Assembly: GCA_049903315.1 (NCBI GenBank)
Contig: JBNGBT010000001.1
Span: 320,001-384,000, forward strand
From: Candidatus Cloacimonadota bacterium
GTDB lineage: Bacteria; Cloacimonadota; Cloacimonadia; JGIOTU-2
Direction: 5' to 3'
DNA length: 64,000 bases
Shown piece by piece: positions 24,724 through 30,635 of the stretch (positions are counted from its first letter, which is position 1; each line of letters starts with the position of its first letter). The notes beneath the pieces were generated by a model. It was not told the DNA's origin and ran no database searches. It saw nothing but the letters and a program-made list of their open reading frames with translations. The position numbers were made by a program, and so were the translations under genes.

Positions 24724-27114
24724 TTATCGTAACTTCACGACCTTCCCGAAATGTTCATCGTTATTATTTATTTTATAGAAATATACACCCGTGCCCAATT
24801 CGTTGCCATTAGCATCCTTTCCATCCCATGTTGCTTCGAGAAAGCGGGGAAGCGAAGAAGCGCCAGAAGAAATTTCTAAATCCGATCCGCCAGCTGGCGG
24901 ACTAATGTCTAATTCTCTGACAAGTTGTCCTTTTATATTATAAATTTTGATTCGTGCTAATTCGTGTAAATTCGTGGTTAATGAAAACGATAACGTTGTC
25001 GATGTAGAGAAGGGATTAGGGTAGGAGGATAATGAAATTTCATTATTGTATATATTTTCATCATCGATCGATGTATTTATATTGTAAGAATAGATTGAAG
25101 CACACTCTTTTTGCGTGCTGATAAAATATGTATTGTTGTCTTGTGCATAAAAATTTAAAAGAGGACCCCAACTATTAAAATTGATATATTCAAAACTTTC
25201 AAGGTAACCTGAAGGATTACCGGATACATCAAATAAACCTAAAGAAAACTCATATACTTGAAACAGAATATCATCATTAATAAAGCTTGAATACAGAAAT
25301 GAGTTTTCTGTCGAAAATTGTTCTGTTAACTGAAAAGGGGTTTCAAATATATAGAATTTATCAAAGTTATCTGTGATATATGCATTGGTGTGTAAATAAT
25401 TACCAACCTTATTCATCAAAATGTGATAATTGGGACCAAAATTAGAAATTGTTTGCGCGAGGTCGGGCTCATTGTCTTCAAATCCTCCATAGATATACAA
25501 ATTTTGATAAGGTGAAGCGCTATCAAGTACATAGAAATACCCATCGTTAAATAGACCCTTGCCATTTGAAATATATGTTAACGCGTAGTCAAATAGTATT
25601 TCCGGGGTTGCCGGATCGGACATATCGTATTTTACTATTTTTTGATATGGACCAAACCACCACCAATAAAAGCAATATAACATATCCGGCTCATCTTCAT
25701 TAATAATAAGAACAGGGATCCCGAATCCACCCTCTGCTTCAAAATCAGATTGCAAAATTGGCTCATGAGGATTTGAAATATTATATAAACAGACTTTTAT
25801 TTCATTATTTCTATTAACATACGCGCTATACATTCTGTTCCCAATAAACTTGCTCCCGTAGGTTCTGCAACTGTCCAATAGTATTTTTTTAAGTTTCGGC
25901 ATATCAGTATTGGACAAATCATAGACATAAATGCCATCATTTACCATAGGAATAAAAAGATAATCATCATAGATACTAATATATTTATATCCTAATTGGT
26001 GGTTTGGATGTGTTTGTTCGTTATTTATAAATACCATTGTGCCATCATAAAAAGAGTATTTGAAAATTCCGGAATCGGGTGTGCCCCAGTATAACAAATT
26101 ATTATAGTATTTGATATTTGAATTTGTAATATATGAGGTGAGTCCTGAAAAGTTTTGCTGTTCTTCGGAGAGAGGACAAAAGGAACTAAAACATGGATTT
26201 GTAATATCGGTAATATCCACTACTTCTATTCCATCTGGTGGTTGTGGAATGATAATATAATTATCAAATCTGGTAAAATCTGCCCATTTACCGTACGATG
26301 TATAGGTATAATAATCTGTAATAAAATACCAATTATGAATATCGGATATATCCCAAAGTGCTAATGCTTCATCGCCTAATATTCCAACCGTAGTGCTGTC
26401 GATTTGCTGAATATAATTATATGTTGTAATAACAGAAGGAGTGTTGGTAAGATTGATCGTTGCTTCTATGAAAATGTTATTAATATCTGTTATGTTATAT
26501 ATTTCATAAAGAAGACTTCCATTACGAGAGGTCATGAAAAGAGAATCATTAATAGGGTAGGTTTGACAGCATATAGGCAGAGAATTAATTTCCTCAAAAT
26601 TTTCATGGTCAAGAACCAATAATGTGCCTGAAAATGAATTCTCATTATATTCACGACACATTAAATTGTCATTATAGAAGCCCAATTGATAAATTACTGA
26701 GTCATCAAAAAACAGCGAATCAACAATTATGGGATTATCAGGAGTTGTGACATCGATCTTGTATAAATAGGATCCTAAGAACAGAGACCAGGTTTGACTT
26801 GTTGTCGATGCTATATACACGAAGTTATCCTTTTTAGTAATCATATCTGTCATTCCAATAAAACCAATCGTCGCAATTCTTTCCAGGTTGCCTGTTGCAT
26901 TATCTATGCTTTGTATTTCAAGCCCATATCTGTTAACAATATACATATATGAGGAATCAATAATGATTCTATCATCTCCGCAATAATTTCCTCCAATTGC
27001 AAAATCGTTGATCTTTTCATAATTGAATTCAATAGCATATAAAAATTCTGGTAATATAAGTATAAAGAGGGTAAAAATAATTAATAAATTTATTTGTTTA
27101 TAGTGTTTAATCAT
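24724..27114 (-). CDS. Secreted LVIVD-like repeat (beta-propeller) protein with FlgD-Ig/T9SS-type CTD
   Basis: Signal peptide; YKIDVTTPDNP, GIEVVDITDITNP, GIYVYDLSN, LYNISNPHEP repeats; YPNPF..IYNIKGQLVR..WDGKD..GVYFY..KVVKLR; AGGAG RBS. Confidence 0.82.
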   Translation of the reverse strand: MIKHYKQINLLIIFTLFILILPEFLYAIEFNYEKINDFAIGGNYCGDDRIIIDSSYMYIVNRYGLEIQSIDNATGNLERIATIGFIGMTDMITKKDNFVYIASTTSQTWSLFLGSYLYKIDVTTPDNPIIVDSLFFDDSVIYQLGFYNDNLMCREYNENSFSGTLLVLDHENFEEINSLPICCQTYPINDSLFMTSRNGSLLYEIYNITDINNIFIEATINLTNTPSVITTYNYIQQIDSTTVGILGDEALALWDISDIHNWYFITDYYTYTSYGKWADFTRFDNYIIIPQPPDGIEVVDITDITNPCFSSFCPLSEEQQNFSGLTSYITNSNIKYYNNLLYWGTPDSGIFKYSFYDGTMVFINNEQTHPNHQLGYKYISIYDDYLFIPMVNDGIYVYDLSNTDMPKLKKILLDSCRTYGSKFIGNRMYSAYVNRNNEIKVCLYNISNPHEPILQSDFEAEGGFGIPVLIINEDEPDMLYCFYWWWFGPYQKIVKYDMSDPATPEILFDYALTYISNGKGLFNDGYFYVLDSASPYQNLYIYGGFEDNEPDLAQTISNFGPNYHILMNKVGNYLHTNAYITDNFDKFYIFETPFQLTEQFSTENSFLYSSFINDDILFQVYEFSLGLFDVSGNPSGYLESFEYINFNSWGPLLNFYAQDNNTYFISTQKECASIYSYNINTSIDDENIYNNEISLSSYPNPFSTSTTLSFSLTTNLHELARIKIYNIKGQLVRELDISPPAGGSDLEISSGASSLPRFLEATWDGKDANGNELGTGVYFYKINNNDEHFGKVVKLR
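24886..24981. repeat. Intergenic-type repeats embedded in frame in the CTD coding region
   Basis: Perfect 16-bp palindrome TCCGCCAGCTGGCGGA (24886-24901) and TTCGTG x3 GGTTAA (24951-24981). Confidence 0.7.
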
Positions 27115-27175: not shown

Positions 27176-27556
27176 TTATTGGTTAGGAGGTTCGGGCTCT
27201 CCCGGATCGGGCTCTTGACCAGTGGTTGGCAAATAGAGATGAACCGTGGTAAAAGGTGAAATGCCGCCAACTTCAGAATCTGAGCGATCACCTTGTTCTG
27301 CCGTTAATGACCATATTGGATACTCTTGAGAACAGTAAATATCTGGAAATGATTCTGTATAATAGCCAGTACCTGTTTCCGGAGTTTTTGAATCATATAG
27401 ATATGGTTGTTGTTCAGGGGTGTCTTGCCTGTATAGGTAAAGCGTTGGACCGCTCTTTAATACACCATGAACATATACATCTACTGATTGAGCCAATAAA
27501 TTTCCACCAATGAATAGTGTCGCTAATATCGCGAGTATCGCAATTTTTTTAAACAT
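27176..27556 (-). CDS. Small secreted hypothetical protein with Pro-rich tail
   Basis: Signal peptide MFKKIAILAILATLFIGGNLLA; GAGG RBS; ends EPDPGEPEPPNQ. Confidence 0.8.
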   Translation of the reverse strand: MFKKIAILAILATLFIGGNLLAQSVDVYVHGVLKSGPTLYLYRQDTPEQQPYLYDSKTPETGTGYYTESFPDIYCSQEYPIWSLTAEQGDRSDSEVGGISPFTTVHLYLPTTGQEPDPGEPEPPNQ

Positions 27557-27959
27557 CGTTTTTACCTCTTAATTATTTTATTCCTTTATTCTACGTTTCC
27601 CCCTTTACTACAAAGGTAATTCGTAAAGGAGTATTCCCGGCAGTCTCAATAATCCATTTCATAATTTCCTTTCTACCATGTTCGAATTTCTTGTCAATAA
27701 GAAAACCTATCTGTTTTGGGAAGAACGATAGATAGGTCTGGTCAGGTGAATTTAGTTTTATGTATACATGTATTCAGGAAATGTAAACATTCCATTTTTA
27801 TTATTTTGCCCTTGCTTAATAATTTCATGCTACTATCCCCAAACCATGGTATTTCATGGCATACCTCAATTACTACGAACCAACTAAGTTGGATTCTGCT
27901 GCAGAACATCATTATCAAAATCTTCAACGTTTCATGGAGCCGGAGAAAACTCCCGCTAA

Positions 27960-28442
27960 TCATTCTTCTGGACGAAGAATGAATCGCGGGAGAGCCATGA
28001 TTGGGGTCTCTAAAATACCTCCGTACTCCTTGGTACTCATATTTTGCACCTCGTAACTTGCTGAAAATTGGACCTCTTTATCCAAGATTGAAGTCAGTGT
28101 TGTCTCAACTGCACGAGCATAAATAGGTTTTGTCAGATATCCTGCCGGATTCGTTTGCTTTGCTTCTTCCATGGTTTCTTCATCGTTGTAAGCAGACACG
28201 AATACTACAGGGACATCCTTACTGGTGCGAATCTGTCTCGCGGCTTCGATACCGTTGATCTGCCCGGCCAGGTTAATATCCATAAATATAAGATGCGGGT
28301 CAAAAGTTTTCGAAAGCTCGACAGCATGCTCGCCGCTTGCAGCAGTAACACATTCGTATGGTCCGAAACGTTGTATAAGATTTTTCAGATGCAGTGCGAT
28401 AATTGCTTCATCTTCAACGATCAATATTTTTTGTTTATTCAT
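27960..28442 (-). CDS. Single-domain response regulator (receiver) with short C-terminal tail
   Basis: KILIVEDE, IFMDINL (phospho-Asp), VFVSAY, YLTKP; start placed at ATG 28442. Confidence 0.88.
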   Translation of the reverse strand: MNKQKILIVEDEAIIALHLKNLIQRFGPYECVTAASGEHAVELSKTFDPHLIFMDINLAGQINGIEAARQIRTSKDVPVVFVSAYNDEETMEEAKQTNPAGYLTKPIYARAVETTLTSILDKEVQFSASYEVQNMSTKEYGGILETPIMALPRFILRPEE

Positions 28443-28464: not shown

Positions 28465-28575
28465 TTACGCTTTTCCCTCGACTGATTTCCTTTCATGTCC
28501 GAGGAAAACTTTTCCATCAGAGATTATTACTATATATTCTCCGCCATTGCCGTCATGTATTCTTTTAATAGTCAT
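28465..28575 (-). CDS. Micropeptide copy 1, 36 aa (MTIKRIHDGNGGEYIVIISDGKVFLGHERKSVEGKA)
   Basis: Below ORF-track cutoff; AAGGAGA RBS; paralogous to 29099 and 29399 copies with mainly synonymous differences. Confidence 0.8.
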   Translation of the reverse strand: MTIKRIHDGNGGEYIVIISDGKVFLGHERKSVEGKA

Positions 28576-28589
28576 GTTATTCTCCTTTA

Positions 28590-28874
28590 TTATGCTTTCA
28601 TTACGTGAACAGTACCATTCACTACGATCACAATGTACTTTTCACCATTTGGTCCAATTATAGTCGCATCGAATATAATTTCATCATTGCTATCAAATAC
28701 AAGCCCTATTACAACTGGATAGTCTGTGTTTTCATCTAAATATTGAGAGATGAATTCAGCATCATCCAGGTTGCATAAAGAACGCAATTCACTTGCTGTC
28801 ATTGCAAAAGCTACCGAATTAATTAATAACAAAAATACAAGTACACCTACTAACACTAATGTTTTCTTTTTCAT
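28590..28874 (-). CDS. Small secreted protein (94 aa) with C-terminal NGxxYIVIxxxGxV motif
   Basis: Signal peptide MKKKTLVLVGVLVFLLLINSVAFA; AGGTGG RBS before ATG 28874. Confidence 0.82.
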   Translation of the reverse strand: MKKKTLVLVGVLVFLLLINSVAFAMTASELRSLCNLDDAEFISQYLDENTDYPVVIGLVFDSNDEIIFDATIIGPNGEKYIVIVVNGTVHVMKA

Positions 28875-28898: not shown

Positions 28899-29099
28899 TT
28901 ATTTATATATCATAAAAAGTGCCGATTTGTGACGACACCACTCAAAAAAGTTGAAAAAAAGTGAAAAAAATTCATTTGAGGTGACAGAATCCTTATGAAT
29001 TATCACATTTTTCTTCTCATGTCCGAGGAATACTTTTCCTTCAGAGATAATCACGATGTACTCTCCACCGTTTCCGTCATGAATTCTTTTAATAGTCAT
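28899..29099 (-). CDS. Micropeptide copy 2 (core 30 aa; reads through to 66 aa)
   Basis: AGGAGA RBS; MTIKRIHDGNGGEYIVIISEGKVFLGHEKK core. Confidence 0.75.
   Translation of the reverse strand: MTIKRIHDGNGGEYIVIISEGKVFLGHEKKNVIIHKDSVTSNEFFSLFFNFFEWCRHKSALFMIYK
28903..28985 (-). promoter_or_regulatory. Conserved promoter-like element, copy A (GTCACA-N16-GATATATA with three 10-bp-phased A-tracts upstream)
   Basis: Near-identical to 29202-29285; GTCACA at 28933-28928; lies about 30 nt upstream of the 28874 start. Confidence 0.6.
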
Positions 29100-29201
29100 T
29101 TTATTCTCCTATTATTTTTTTAATTTGCTAAGTTCCAAATTATTGCCAGCCATTTTCATGTAATTTTTTATAATCACAAGAATCATTTCTCTAATTTTTA
29201 C

Positions 29202-29285
29202 TTATATATCATGAAAAGTGCCGATTTGTGACGACACCACTCAAAAAAGTTGAAAAAAAATGAAAAAAGTTACATATGAGGTGAC
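29202..29285 (-). promoter_or_regulatory. Conserved promoter-like element, copy B
   Basis: GTCACA at 29232-29227, same spacing to GATATATA and same A-tracts as copy A. Confidence 0.6.
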
Positions 29286-29294
29286 TAAACCTTA

Positions 29295-29399
29295 TTAATT
29301 TTTATTATTTTTCTTCTCATGTCCGAGAAATACTTTTCCTTCAGAGACAATAACAGTGTATTCTCCGCCATTGCCGTCAGGAAATCTTTTTATGGTCAT
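29295..29399 (-). CDS. Micropeptide copy 3, 34 aa (MTIKRFPDGNGGEYTVIVSEGKVFLGHEKKNNKN)
   Basis: Below ORF-track cutoff; AAGGAGA RBS; tandem TAA TAA stops. Confidence 0.8.
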   Translation of the reverse strand: MTIKRFPDGNGGEYTVIVSEGKVFLGHEKKNNKN

Positions 29400-29654: not shown

Positions 29655-30635
29655 ATGAAAAAAAAAGCTGATAATGATGCTGTTGTTCTGAAGAATTATC
29701 ATACTCTTGCCTACAATTATGCATTATACAAAGTTGGAAGTCTCGATGCAGCAGAGGATATAGCATCTCAGACGATTTATTCATATTTATTGAAAAGGGA
29801 AAAGATTGAAGAAAACAATGATGAGGGTTGGATTGTTAATACTAGTAAAAATTATTGTAATCAGTATTTTGATAGATTGAAGGCTGAAAAGAAATTGCAG
29901 AACGATATGGTTGGGAATATGGCAAGAGAACTGCAAACAAAAATATATGAGAGCCTTGATTTTGTTGATAATGAAAAAAACGAGCTCTTAGATGCCGTAA
30001 AAAATGCTAAAGAGACACTCACTTCCAAGGAACTTCAAACCTATATCTTATACCTTCAATGTGAAGCAAATGTACAGAGGATGGAAAAAATAATTGGTGA
30101 GTCCAATGAGGTTATCCGACAAAGGATCTCCAGGATCAATAGGAAAATAAAGGCAGAAACCTACAAAAAGCTTGGGGTAATAACCACCAAGAAAATATTA
30201 AGTCCTCAGATCAATGATATAATAAAAAAATTTCTTTTGCGATTTAAAAAGCATTTGGAAAATAATACACTGAATAAGATGTTTTATTATTTTTCGAAAA
30301 AAGATATTAGTAATTATAATCCCCAATTTAATATAAAAAAAGTATTGGATTATGAGGTAGTACTAGACGATGCAATATATACAATTCATGTAGTTTTTAC
30401 TAATACACAAGATGAGGATGAATCCTTCTATTTTTCGTTTACAGTGGAAAATAATTTTCTAAAAGTTCTTCAACCTCCCACACCTCACAGAGAACATTAT
30501 CAATTAAGCGGTGAAGATGCAGAAATACTTCTTACCTTATTAAAAAAATATCCCGAAGATAGTACAGGAGCACATCGTGTTCCCGATGAAGAACTTGTGC
30601 TTCTAAGAAGAATTCTTGGGGAAGAGGATGAATGA
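29655..30635 (+). CDS. ECF-type sigma-70 factor with about 150-aa C-terminal extension
   Basis: Region 2-like LAYNYALYKVGSLDAAEDIASQT...WIVNTSKNYC; region 4-like LTSKELQTYILY...MEKIIGESNEVIRQRISRINRKIK. Confidence 0.75.
   Translation: MKKKADNDAVVLKNYHTLAYNYALYKVGSLDAAEDIASQTIYSYLLKREKIEENNDEGWIVNTSKNYCNQYFDRLKAEKKLQNDMVGNMARELQTKIYESLDFVDNEKNELLDAVKNAKETLTSKELQTYILYLQCEANVQRMEKIIGESNEVIRQRISRINRKIKAETYKKLGVITTKKILSPQINDIIKKFLLRFKKHLENNTLNKMFYYFSKKDISNYNPQFNIKKVLDYEVVLDDAIYTIHVVFTNTQDEDESFYFSFTVENNFLKVLQPPTPHREHYQLSGEDAEILLTLLKKYPEDSTGAHRVPDEELVLLRRILGEEDE

Follow-up and report, generated by a model that had tools for sequence, protein, structure and literature searches.

At one locus of a Candidatus Cloacimonadota genome (here G000), a small secreted protein and several micropeptides without a signal sequence appear to end in the same motif. 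Is this resemblance homology or chance, and if the copies are kept, what would a cell do with a module that it makes in both exported and non-exported forms? These questions were addressed in a 64,000-nt stretch of the genome (G000:C11:320001-384000), called the window here, and across 232 genomes of the phylum.

Layout of the locus

On the minus strand the order is pepA, promoter-like site 1, pepB, promoter-like site 2, the 94-aa protein, pepC and a receiver (REC) protein with an inverted repeat at the end of its gene, followed by a small protein of 126 aa and a protein of 796 aa that carries a type IX secretion system (T9SS) sorting domain. The features, with the grounds for each, are as follows.

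29655..30635, plus strand: divergent ECF-like sigma factor, 326 aa, with a predicted NTF2/SnoaL-like C-terminal domain at about residues 177-284 (profiles and structure model)
29295..29399, minus strand: pepA, peptide copy of 34 aa, located upstream of sites 1 and 2 (ORF list, alignment, promoter matrix)
29201..29246, minus strand: ECF-type promoter-like site 1, consisting of a GTGG box, GTCACA, 16 nt and GATA (PWM score 54.7; shuffled maximum 11.9)
28899..29099, minus strand: pepB, peptide copy whose frame extends to 66 aa through the second promoter site (ORF list, alignment, tblastn)
28902..28947, minus strand: ECF-type promoter-like site 2, in repeat D2 and 27 nt ahead of the secreted gene (PWM score 56.3)
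28590..28874, minus strand: secreted 94-aa protein (ORF; ATG at 28874 chosen from homologues)
28602..28661, minus strand: shared motif, residues 72-91, last strands of the predicted beta-meander (alignment, hhalign, HMM ranks)
28465..28575, minus strand: pepC, 36-aa signal-less peptide directly 3′ of the secreted gene, the conserved copy (RBS and alignment; orthologues in 6 same-genus genomes)
27960..28439, minus strand: stand-alone REC protein (PF00072, E 1.2e-22; the listed ORF starts at 28517, a later ATG being favoured by homologues)
27950..27992, no strand assigned: inverted repeat I2 at the REC gene end, a possible terminator (repeat search; absent from terminator scan output)
27176..27556, minus strand: 126-aa small protein with a likely signal peptide, downstream (ORF; no Pfam or NCBIfam match)
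24724..27114, minus strand: 796-aa likely T9SS cargo, its C-terminal sorting domain recognized by PF18962 and TIGR04183, both over cut-off

A repeat search of the window found 300-nt repeats, each holding a promoter with pepA or pepB. The sigma-70 promoter scan returned 11 sites versus 10.2 expected, and the single below-threshold miRNA match of the Rfam scan was taken as chance.

Common origin of the secreted tail and the micropeptides

Residues 72-91 of the secreted protein align without gaps to all three peptides, with 9/20 identities to pepC, 9/20 to pepB and 8/20 to pepA, and shuffled peptides reached the observed scores in 0, 1 and 7 of 2000 trials, respectively. A tblastn search with pepC hit the secreted tail at E 4.4 only, so that the single pair is weak alone and the homology case is carried by the families. 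The profile-profile comparison proposed in an earlier note on this DNA was run with hhalign; 26 peptides against 52 secreted proteins gave a probability of 96.0 and an E of 3.8e-9, and 11 own-genus peptide rows against 41 non-genus tails gave 60.5 and 8.4e-5.

Among the 25,112 ORFs of G000, a tail HMM ranked the secreted protein first and the peptides 2, 3 and 4. When built without own-genus rows, it ranked pepC first (E 0.21), pepA ninth and pepB 32nd. Conversely, a peptide HMM placed the secreted protein at rank 4, just behind the three peptides. The gapless match of the secreted C-terminus to the micropeptide motif, as first described in the earlier note, was thus borne out by the family alignment and the reciprocal ranks. 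Chance similarity had been expected to reveal itself by homologues that do not conserve the motif, but all six other proteins and the six strongest same-genus homologues retain it. An exception is a divergent copy in G004:C315, which has neither the turn glycine nor the hydrophobic N-terminal core. On these comparisons, the tail of the secreted protein is homologous to the micropeptides, all being copies of a single small predicted beta module.

It had also been claimed that one operon encodes an exported and a signal-less version of one beta-hairpin. Both versions do occur at one locus, in an arrangement conserved in two families, but the unit is more than a hairpin, being a three-strand meander of a folded domain of ~42 residues in the model. 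Moreover, because pepA is upstream of both ECF-type promoter sites and thus outside them, the locus is not simply one operon.

A family of small signal-bearing proteins

The 94-aa protein has a basic start, a hydrophobic core and an A-x-A site, followed by an acidic mature part and a C-terminal beta domain. Residues 1-24 are likely a Sec signal peptide, as called from sequence pattern and hydropathy. In the AlphaFold model (pLDDT 82), four strands span residues 51-55, 66-73, 79-85 and 88-93, the peptides correspond to the last three of them, and this meander ends a small C-terminal folded domain of ~42 residues. The turn glycine in the conserved C-terminal 42 residues is present in 91% (69/76). 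Family members are about 60-96 aa long with an acidic mature part (median net charge -7), and a hydrophobic N-terminus (KD10 at least 2.47) occurs in 52/52 aligned members, rows that had been picked as full-length, signal-bearing ORFs.

At 50% identity and E<=0.001, the family falls into 149 clusters, of which a few are spurious. Secreted-profile matches with E above about 1e-5 were discounted because signal peptides alone can score. By its profile matches the signal-bearing protein is an unannotated family, for which no convincing Pfam, NCBIfam, PHROG or PDB match was found. The Pfam scan of 52 members listed 18 weak families, each in at most 2/52 members and none of them Por_Secre_tail or FlgD_ig, and PHROGs gave 5 weak single-member matches only. 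The domain profile had 0 matches at E<=1 among solved structures, and a fold search of the secreted model against 48,161 chains had no clear match at a best Z of 3.3, which does not establish a new fold. PepSY (PF03413) was an Atlas lead at only 0.79 and appears neither in the Pfam listing nor in the fold-search rows.

Mimicry of the T9SS C-terminal sorting domain was rejected, as hhalign against the 50 CTD-like tails of the genome gave probabilities of 0.17-0.63. That sorting domain is described as a seven-stranded Ig-like sandwich (PMC11285876), whereas the small-protein model has four strands. Fusions to sigma, REC or cargo were absent among 31 matches of 79-94 aa, which is weak evidence. 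The long family-profile matches inspected were repeats or unrelated, one 164-aa protein being apparently a chance join, and a single member, P0010, has two tandem domains. Outside the genomes, 7 of 13 loci on metagenome contigs had >500 nt upstream; the secreted gene was found in 7/7 of these and the peptide in 3, by an RBS filter known to miss some peptides. On viral contigs, none of 4 pattern matches from one single-protein query was confirmed.

Signal-less forms are retained

Besides the own genus, a second family was found to have signal-less peptide ORFs, in the layout of a signal-bearing protein, a 23-27-aa tail copy and REC. The peptide profile matches in 33/232 phylum genomes, and matches placed in other families fall on secreted-gene tails, except one unrelated ORF. 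The peptide lies directly 3′ of the secreted gene in 25 pairs, with REC next in 23/25 (one without REC, one at a contig edge). All 25 post-secreted copies are intact, the pairs having been selected for intactness. By simple Nei-Gojobori counts over non-independent pairs, pN/pS was 0.17 for 6 pepC orthologues from same-genus genomes, 0.29 for 16 second-family 24-aa peptides and 0.15 for 5 upstream peptide copies, ratios that indicate purifying selection on the peptides.

Mean BLOSUM scores of the peptides against secreted tails of their own lineage were 34.5 and 33.8, versus 23.0 and 28.4 against tails of the other lineage and 20.3 against its peptides. Inside the second family the cognate excess was slight (p 0.03, with one row misregistered). 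This lineage-wise likeness of peptide and tail sequences would fit either separate origins by duplication or shared constraint. In a 112-row sigma tree, every peptide locus falls in one subclade. A double-glycine leader was considered for the own-genus peptides and rejected, as the second family and one upstream copy lack it.

Stops or frameshifts have disrupted the upstream peptide copies of G002, G008 and G009, whose promoter sites are still in place. G002 has three scattered decayed-peptide cassettes beside large cargo-like genes (L021, L026, L030), L026 also with the promoter motif; these cassettes suggest that duplication spreads the promoter and carries the peptide gene along with it. 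In the divergent G004:C315 copy (L013:435-901, a second locus copy), the peptide runs into an apparent REC tail, the REC body being deleted.

A longer signal-less form also exists. In G175 and G176, a 76-aa full-domain form with a polar N-terminus is divergent from sigma and is the only family gene found at those two loci; P0065, P0160 and P0161 are related proteins. Its KD10 values are 0.62 and 0.84, versus the minimum of 2.47 given above for signal-bearing members. Thus, the module can be kept without export.

An ECF sigma factor is the constant partner

The sigma profile gave 277 matches in 146/232 phylum genomes. Neighbourhoods were taken around the best-scoring of the 150 matches listed among the 277, and the tree consisted of 112 sigma rows, whose layout labels were assigned by hand. 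A family gene is near sigma in 83 of the 112 rows: divergent in 35, divergent with a peptide in 22, and directly downstream on the same strand in 26, the usual position of an anti-sigma gene (bioRxiv 2019.12.11.873521). Among the 83 are L142 with a frameshifted gene, L064 and L027 with the gene 2.8 and 6 kb away, L097 with a signal-less form, and two rows that are the second sigma of a tandem pair. The remaining 29/112 have no family gene nearby, some of them at contig edges. Genes beyond the pair vary widely between loci, and the adjacent ECF sigma, to which the earlier note draws no connection, is the constant partner of the small-protein family across the phylum. No membrane anti-sigma was seen in the sigma loci read.

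Close homologues of the sigma (63-85% identity) come from Cloacimonadota, Ca. Cloacimonas sp. and Ca. Celaenobacter. In two further searches all named matches were Cloacimonadota. The ECF core was recognized as Sigma70_r2 in 57/89 sigma members and by a profile match to SigW (E 3.2e-11); the window sigma itself scores below NCBIfam cut-offs. In its structure model (pLDDT 87), residues ~177-284 match 4ec6 with Z 10.0, rmsd 2.4 and 99 aligned residues, and many NTF2-like chains match with Z 8-10. By sequence, the sigma members have no SnoaL Pfam match, and an Atlas search gave nothing usable for the extension. No TPR is among the best 25 of 49 families listed for the 89 members, and the model shows ECF and NTF2-like domains.

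In a mirror-tree comparison of 76 pairs, tail divergence had a partial r of 0.29 with the sigma core and 0.15 with the NTF2 domain, hence no signal of domain-specific co-evolution. At L063 and at L077 (G052, G196), two tandem sigma paralogues have one divergent secreted gene in common. In a sigma subclade of L044-L046 and relatives, the protein carries a 60-70-aa N-terminal extension, and the family gene, where found, is downstream.

A promoter motif and its putative regulon

By pattern match, the motif TTTTGAGTGGTGTC-GTCACA-16 nt-GATA lies upstream of 25/29 secreted genes in this subclade. Of the four other genes, two have GTCCCA-type variants, one has no GTGG box and one lies at a contig edge. 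After GTCACA-16, the -10 element in this subclade is GATA, CATA or GACT, and it is CGTC-like at some other loci.

In G000, the promoter matrix found only 4 sites, with scores of 45-56 against at most 11.9 for shuffles. Two are at this locus and two ahead of T9SS-type cargo loci (G000:C33:266713 on the plus strand and G000:C4:36111 on the minus strand), which are likely the rest of the regulon. The genome has SprA and PorV; 14 matches are PorV-like, 6 of them over cut-off, and about 50 proteins are CTD-like.

Relation to known systems

The arrangement resembles ECF41 and other SnoaL-extended ECFs (ECF56, 205, 294, 295; M. tuberculosis SigJ) in its ECF core and modelled NTF2/SnoaL-like C-terminal domain. 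The -35 GTCACA and 16-nt spacer of the motif also resemble the ECF41 promoter, reported as TGTCACA-16-CGTC (PMC3426412). Unlike ECF41, the -10 here is mostly GATA or CATA, and there is an upstream GTGG box. By pattern, the ECF41 linker motif WxPEP (WLPEP) occurs in 0/112 sigma rows and NPxKL (NPDKL) in 1/112, as these motifs are given in PMC7730460. The sigma neighbour in loci read by eye is a small signal-bearing protein rather than a decarboxylase, oxidoreductase or epimerase (COE), again unlike ECF41.

SigG1-RsfG of Streptomyces tsukubaensis (ECF56) is likewise a SnoaL-extended ECF with an adjacent separate controller of no Pfam family (PMC7730460). This likeness is one of layout; RsfG is described as a co-transcribed anti-sigma, and the available text of that paper does not mention exported and signal-less duplicates. 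FliA-FlgM is similar in logic only, in that the sigma transcribes its own regulator and export takes the latter away (PMC5809477). FlgM has no sequence link to the present family and differs in its flagellar export apparatus and proven binding, with no signal-less paralogues described in the accessible part of the same source.

RRNPP pairs (Rap-Phr, Rgg-SHP, PrgX-PrgQ) share with this locus an adjacent regulator and small Sec-type protein, a conserved C-terminus, and divergent or tandem order. The adjacent proteins of 94 and 326 aa fall within the RRNPP size ranges (10-100 and 250-500 aa), the signal being called from pattern. They differ from RRNPP in that no TPR and no Opp were found, the regulator is a sigma factor, the small partner is a folded domain, and the host is a diderm. 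Thus, the system resembles a SnoaL-extended ECF with a small cognate regulator and belongs, on the features compared, to neither ECF41 nor RRNPP.

The phylum is described as largely uncultured, polymer-degrading and found in anoxic habitats (PMC8542988). A literature search found nothing on Cloacimonadota ECF sigma factors or, by title and start of abstract, on this module. The string 'Cloacimon' is absent from the main text of the ECF reclassification preprint, whose per-group supplements may bear on novelty.

Possible targets of the module

Because selection keeps forms that Sec cannot export, a target in the cytoplasm is most likely for the module. The sigma is favoured as that target because it is the sole cytoplasmic protein linked phylum-wide and because such NTF2/SnoaL-like extensions are regulatory in ECF41 (PMC3426412, PMC8999054). 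We consider it quite possible, although short of probable, that the meander acts on sigma in the cytoplasm, that export drains it, and that signal-less copies set the level. More tentative is the wider proposal of a phylum-wide one-component system, in which a sigma-transcribed beta-domain protein controls the NTF2-like domain as a Sec-export-coupled anti-sigma tuned by signal-less peptides.

In such a scheme, sigma would read the GTCACA-16-GATA promoter and thereby drive T9SS cargo genes along with pepB/pepC, REC and the small protein. The meander would bind sigma, most simply its NTF2-like regulatory domain. The effect would most likely be inhibitory, a feedback like that of FlgM on FliA, by which cargo genes would be expressed in step with the capacity for export; of all the steps, whether the effect is positive or negative is the least certain. 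Export would remove the signal-bearing form, leaving the signal-less copies to set the level: pepA, outside the promoter, might provide a basal threshold, and pepC might damp the induced state. If true, the meander would be, to our knowledge, the first protein ligand of a SnoaL-type ECF extension.

Several points count against regulation of sigma by export drain. Sec may export a small precursor too quickly for it to serve in regulation, the divergence of the tail follows the sigma core no less closely than the NTF2 domain, 29/112 sigma rows have no nearby family gene, and upstream copies have decayed in three genomes. REC next to the peptide in 23/25 loci offers an alternative cytoplasmic partner. 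Furthermore, the conserved neighbour of ECF41 is simply a target gene (PMC3426412), so that linkage and promoter need not mean feedback.

In a rather unlikely alternative, the small protein is a target of sigma only. Its open beta edge, in the periplasm or at the surface, would chaperone, plug or assemble with T9SS cargo or itself, and signal-less copies would bind the same edge on cytoplasmic precursors or cap assembly, close to the assembly idea of the earlier note. The two further G000 motif sites preceding T9SS-cargo loci, SprA and PorV in the genome, the very beta-prone tail in AlphaFold, the tandem domains of P0010 and the occurrence of the signal-bearing form alone at most loci all fit this reading. 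Yet the downstream genes are diverse and only in part secreted cargo, profile likeness to the 50 CTD-like tails is lacking, and the signal-less full-domain form is hard to accommodate in either helper or assembly. If the peptides instead regulated the downstream REC or its kinase, with the exported form signalling via an unlinked membrane sensor, the 23/25 REC neighbours and the kinase-like ORFs that come next at some loci (judged by eye) would be explained. We regard this as distinctly unlikely: at 3 loci REC comes after the secreted gene and no peptide was detected, most family loci are devoid of REC, and the peptide/REC loci form one sigma subclade and hence are not independent.

Unlikely, too, is the pro-peptide or pheromone reading put forward earlier, by which the exported protein is cut and its C-terminal fragment returns to bind sigma in an RRNPP-like manner, with micropeptides as built-in agonists or antagonists. 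Four of the five RRNPP_detector features are found (a small protein, a likely Sec signal, a receptor of 250-500 aa, adjacency; PMC10075063), both divergent and tandem layouts exist, conservation sits at the C-terminus, and there are several cognate pairs per genome. This reading is weakened, however, because no importer of the SBP_bac_5 (Opp), SbmA, PTR2 (POT) or OPT family was found in G000, which is 96% complete; SBP_bac_5 is in 27/232 phylum genomes and in 0/20 others of the family. The conserved unit is also a folded domain of ~42 aa rather than 4-10 residues, the families listed for the 89 sigma members include no TPR, and the host is a diderm. As no return route is visible for a processed fragment, action of the unexported precursor and the signal-less copies is favoured. 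The view that the peptides are duplication remnants, carried along with a duplicated promoter cassette, draws on pepA and pepB lying inside the 300-nt promoter repeats and on the stops or frameshifts of such copies in G002, G008 and G009. It is nevertheless very improbable in light of pN/pS of 0.15-0.29 at high synonymous divergence, length and RBS conserved in two families, and the intact post-secreted copy in 25/25 pairs, selected for intactness as they were.

The sigma-directed reading bears on a wider question, as the regulatory role of the extensions in ECF56, 205, 294 and 295 is still to be elucidated (PMC8999054). A candidate regulator of SnoaL-extended ECFs exists naturally here as exported, full signal-less and 24-36-aa forms. 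All of them can readily be obtained by synthesis, or by expression with a defined promoter, making the question of the ECF switch directly testable. For this phylum, the locus also brings to light a family of small proteins that lacks annotation and a likely regulator of T9SS cargo.

Other small ORFs at the loci

At L110 (~1317-1385), L117 and L125, the secreted gene is followed by a conserved 23-aa ORF of a different kind, which did not score against the family profile. At L065, L070 and L078, a 54-56-aa ORF with a conserved cysteine-containing tail is in that place. The own genome is without a detectable Opp-type binding protein although the bacterium is a presumed peptide fermenter. A second small signal-bearing type of 105-132 aa, with an acidic proline-rich tail (window 27176-27556, L035:319-639, L060, L110, L125), often precedes a large T9SS cargo gene.
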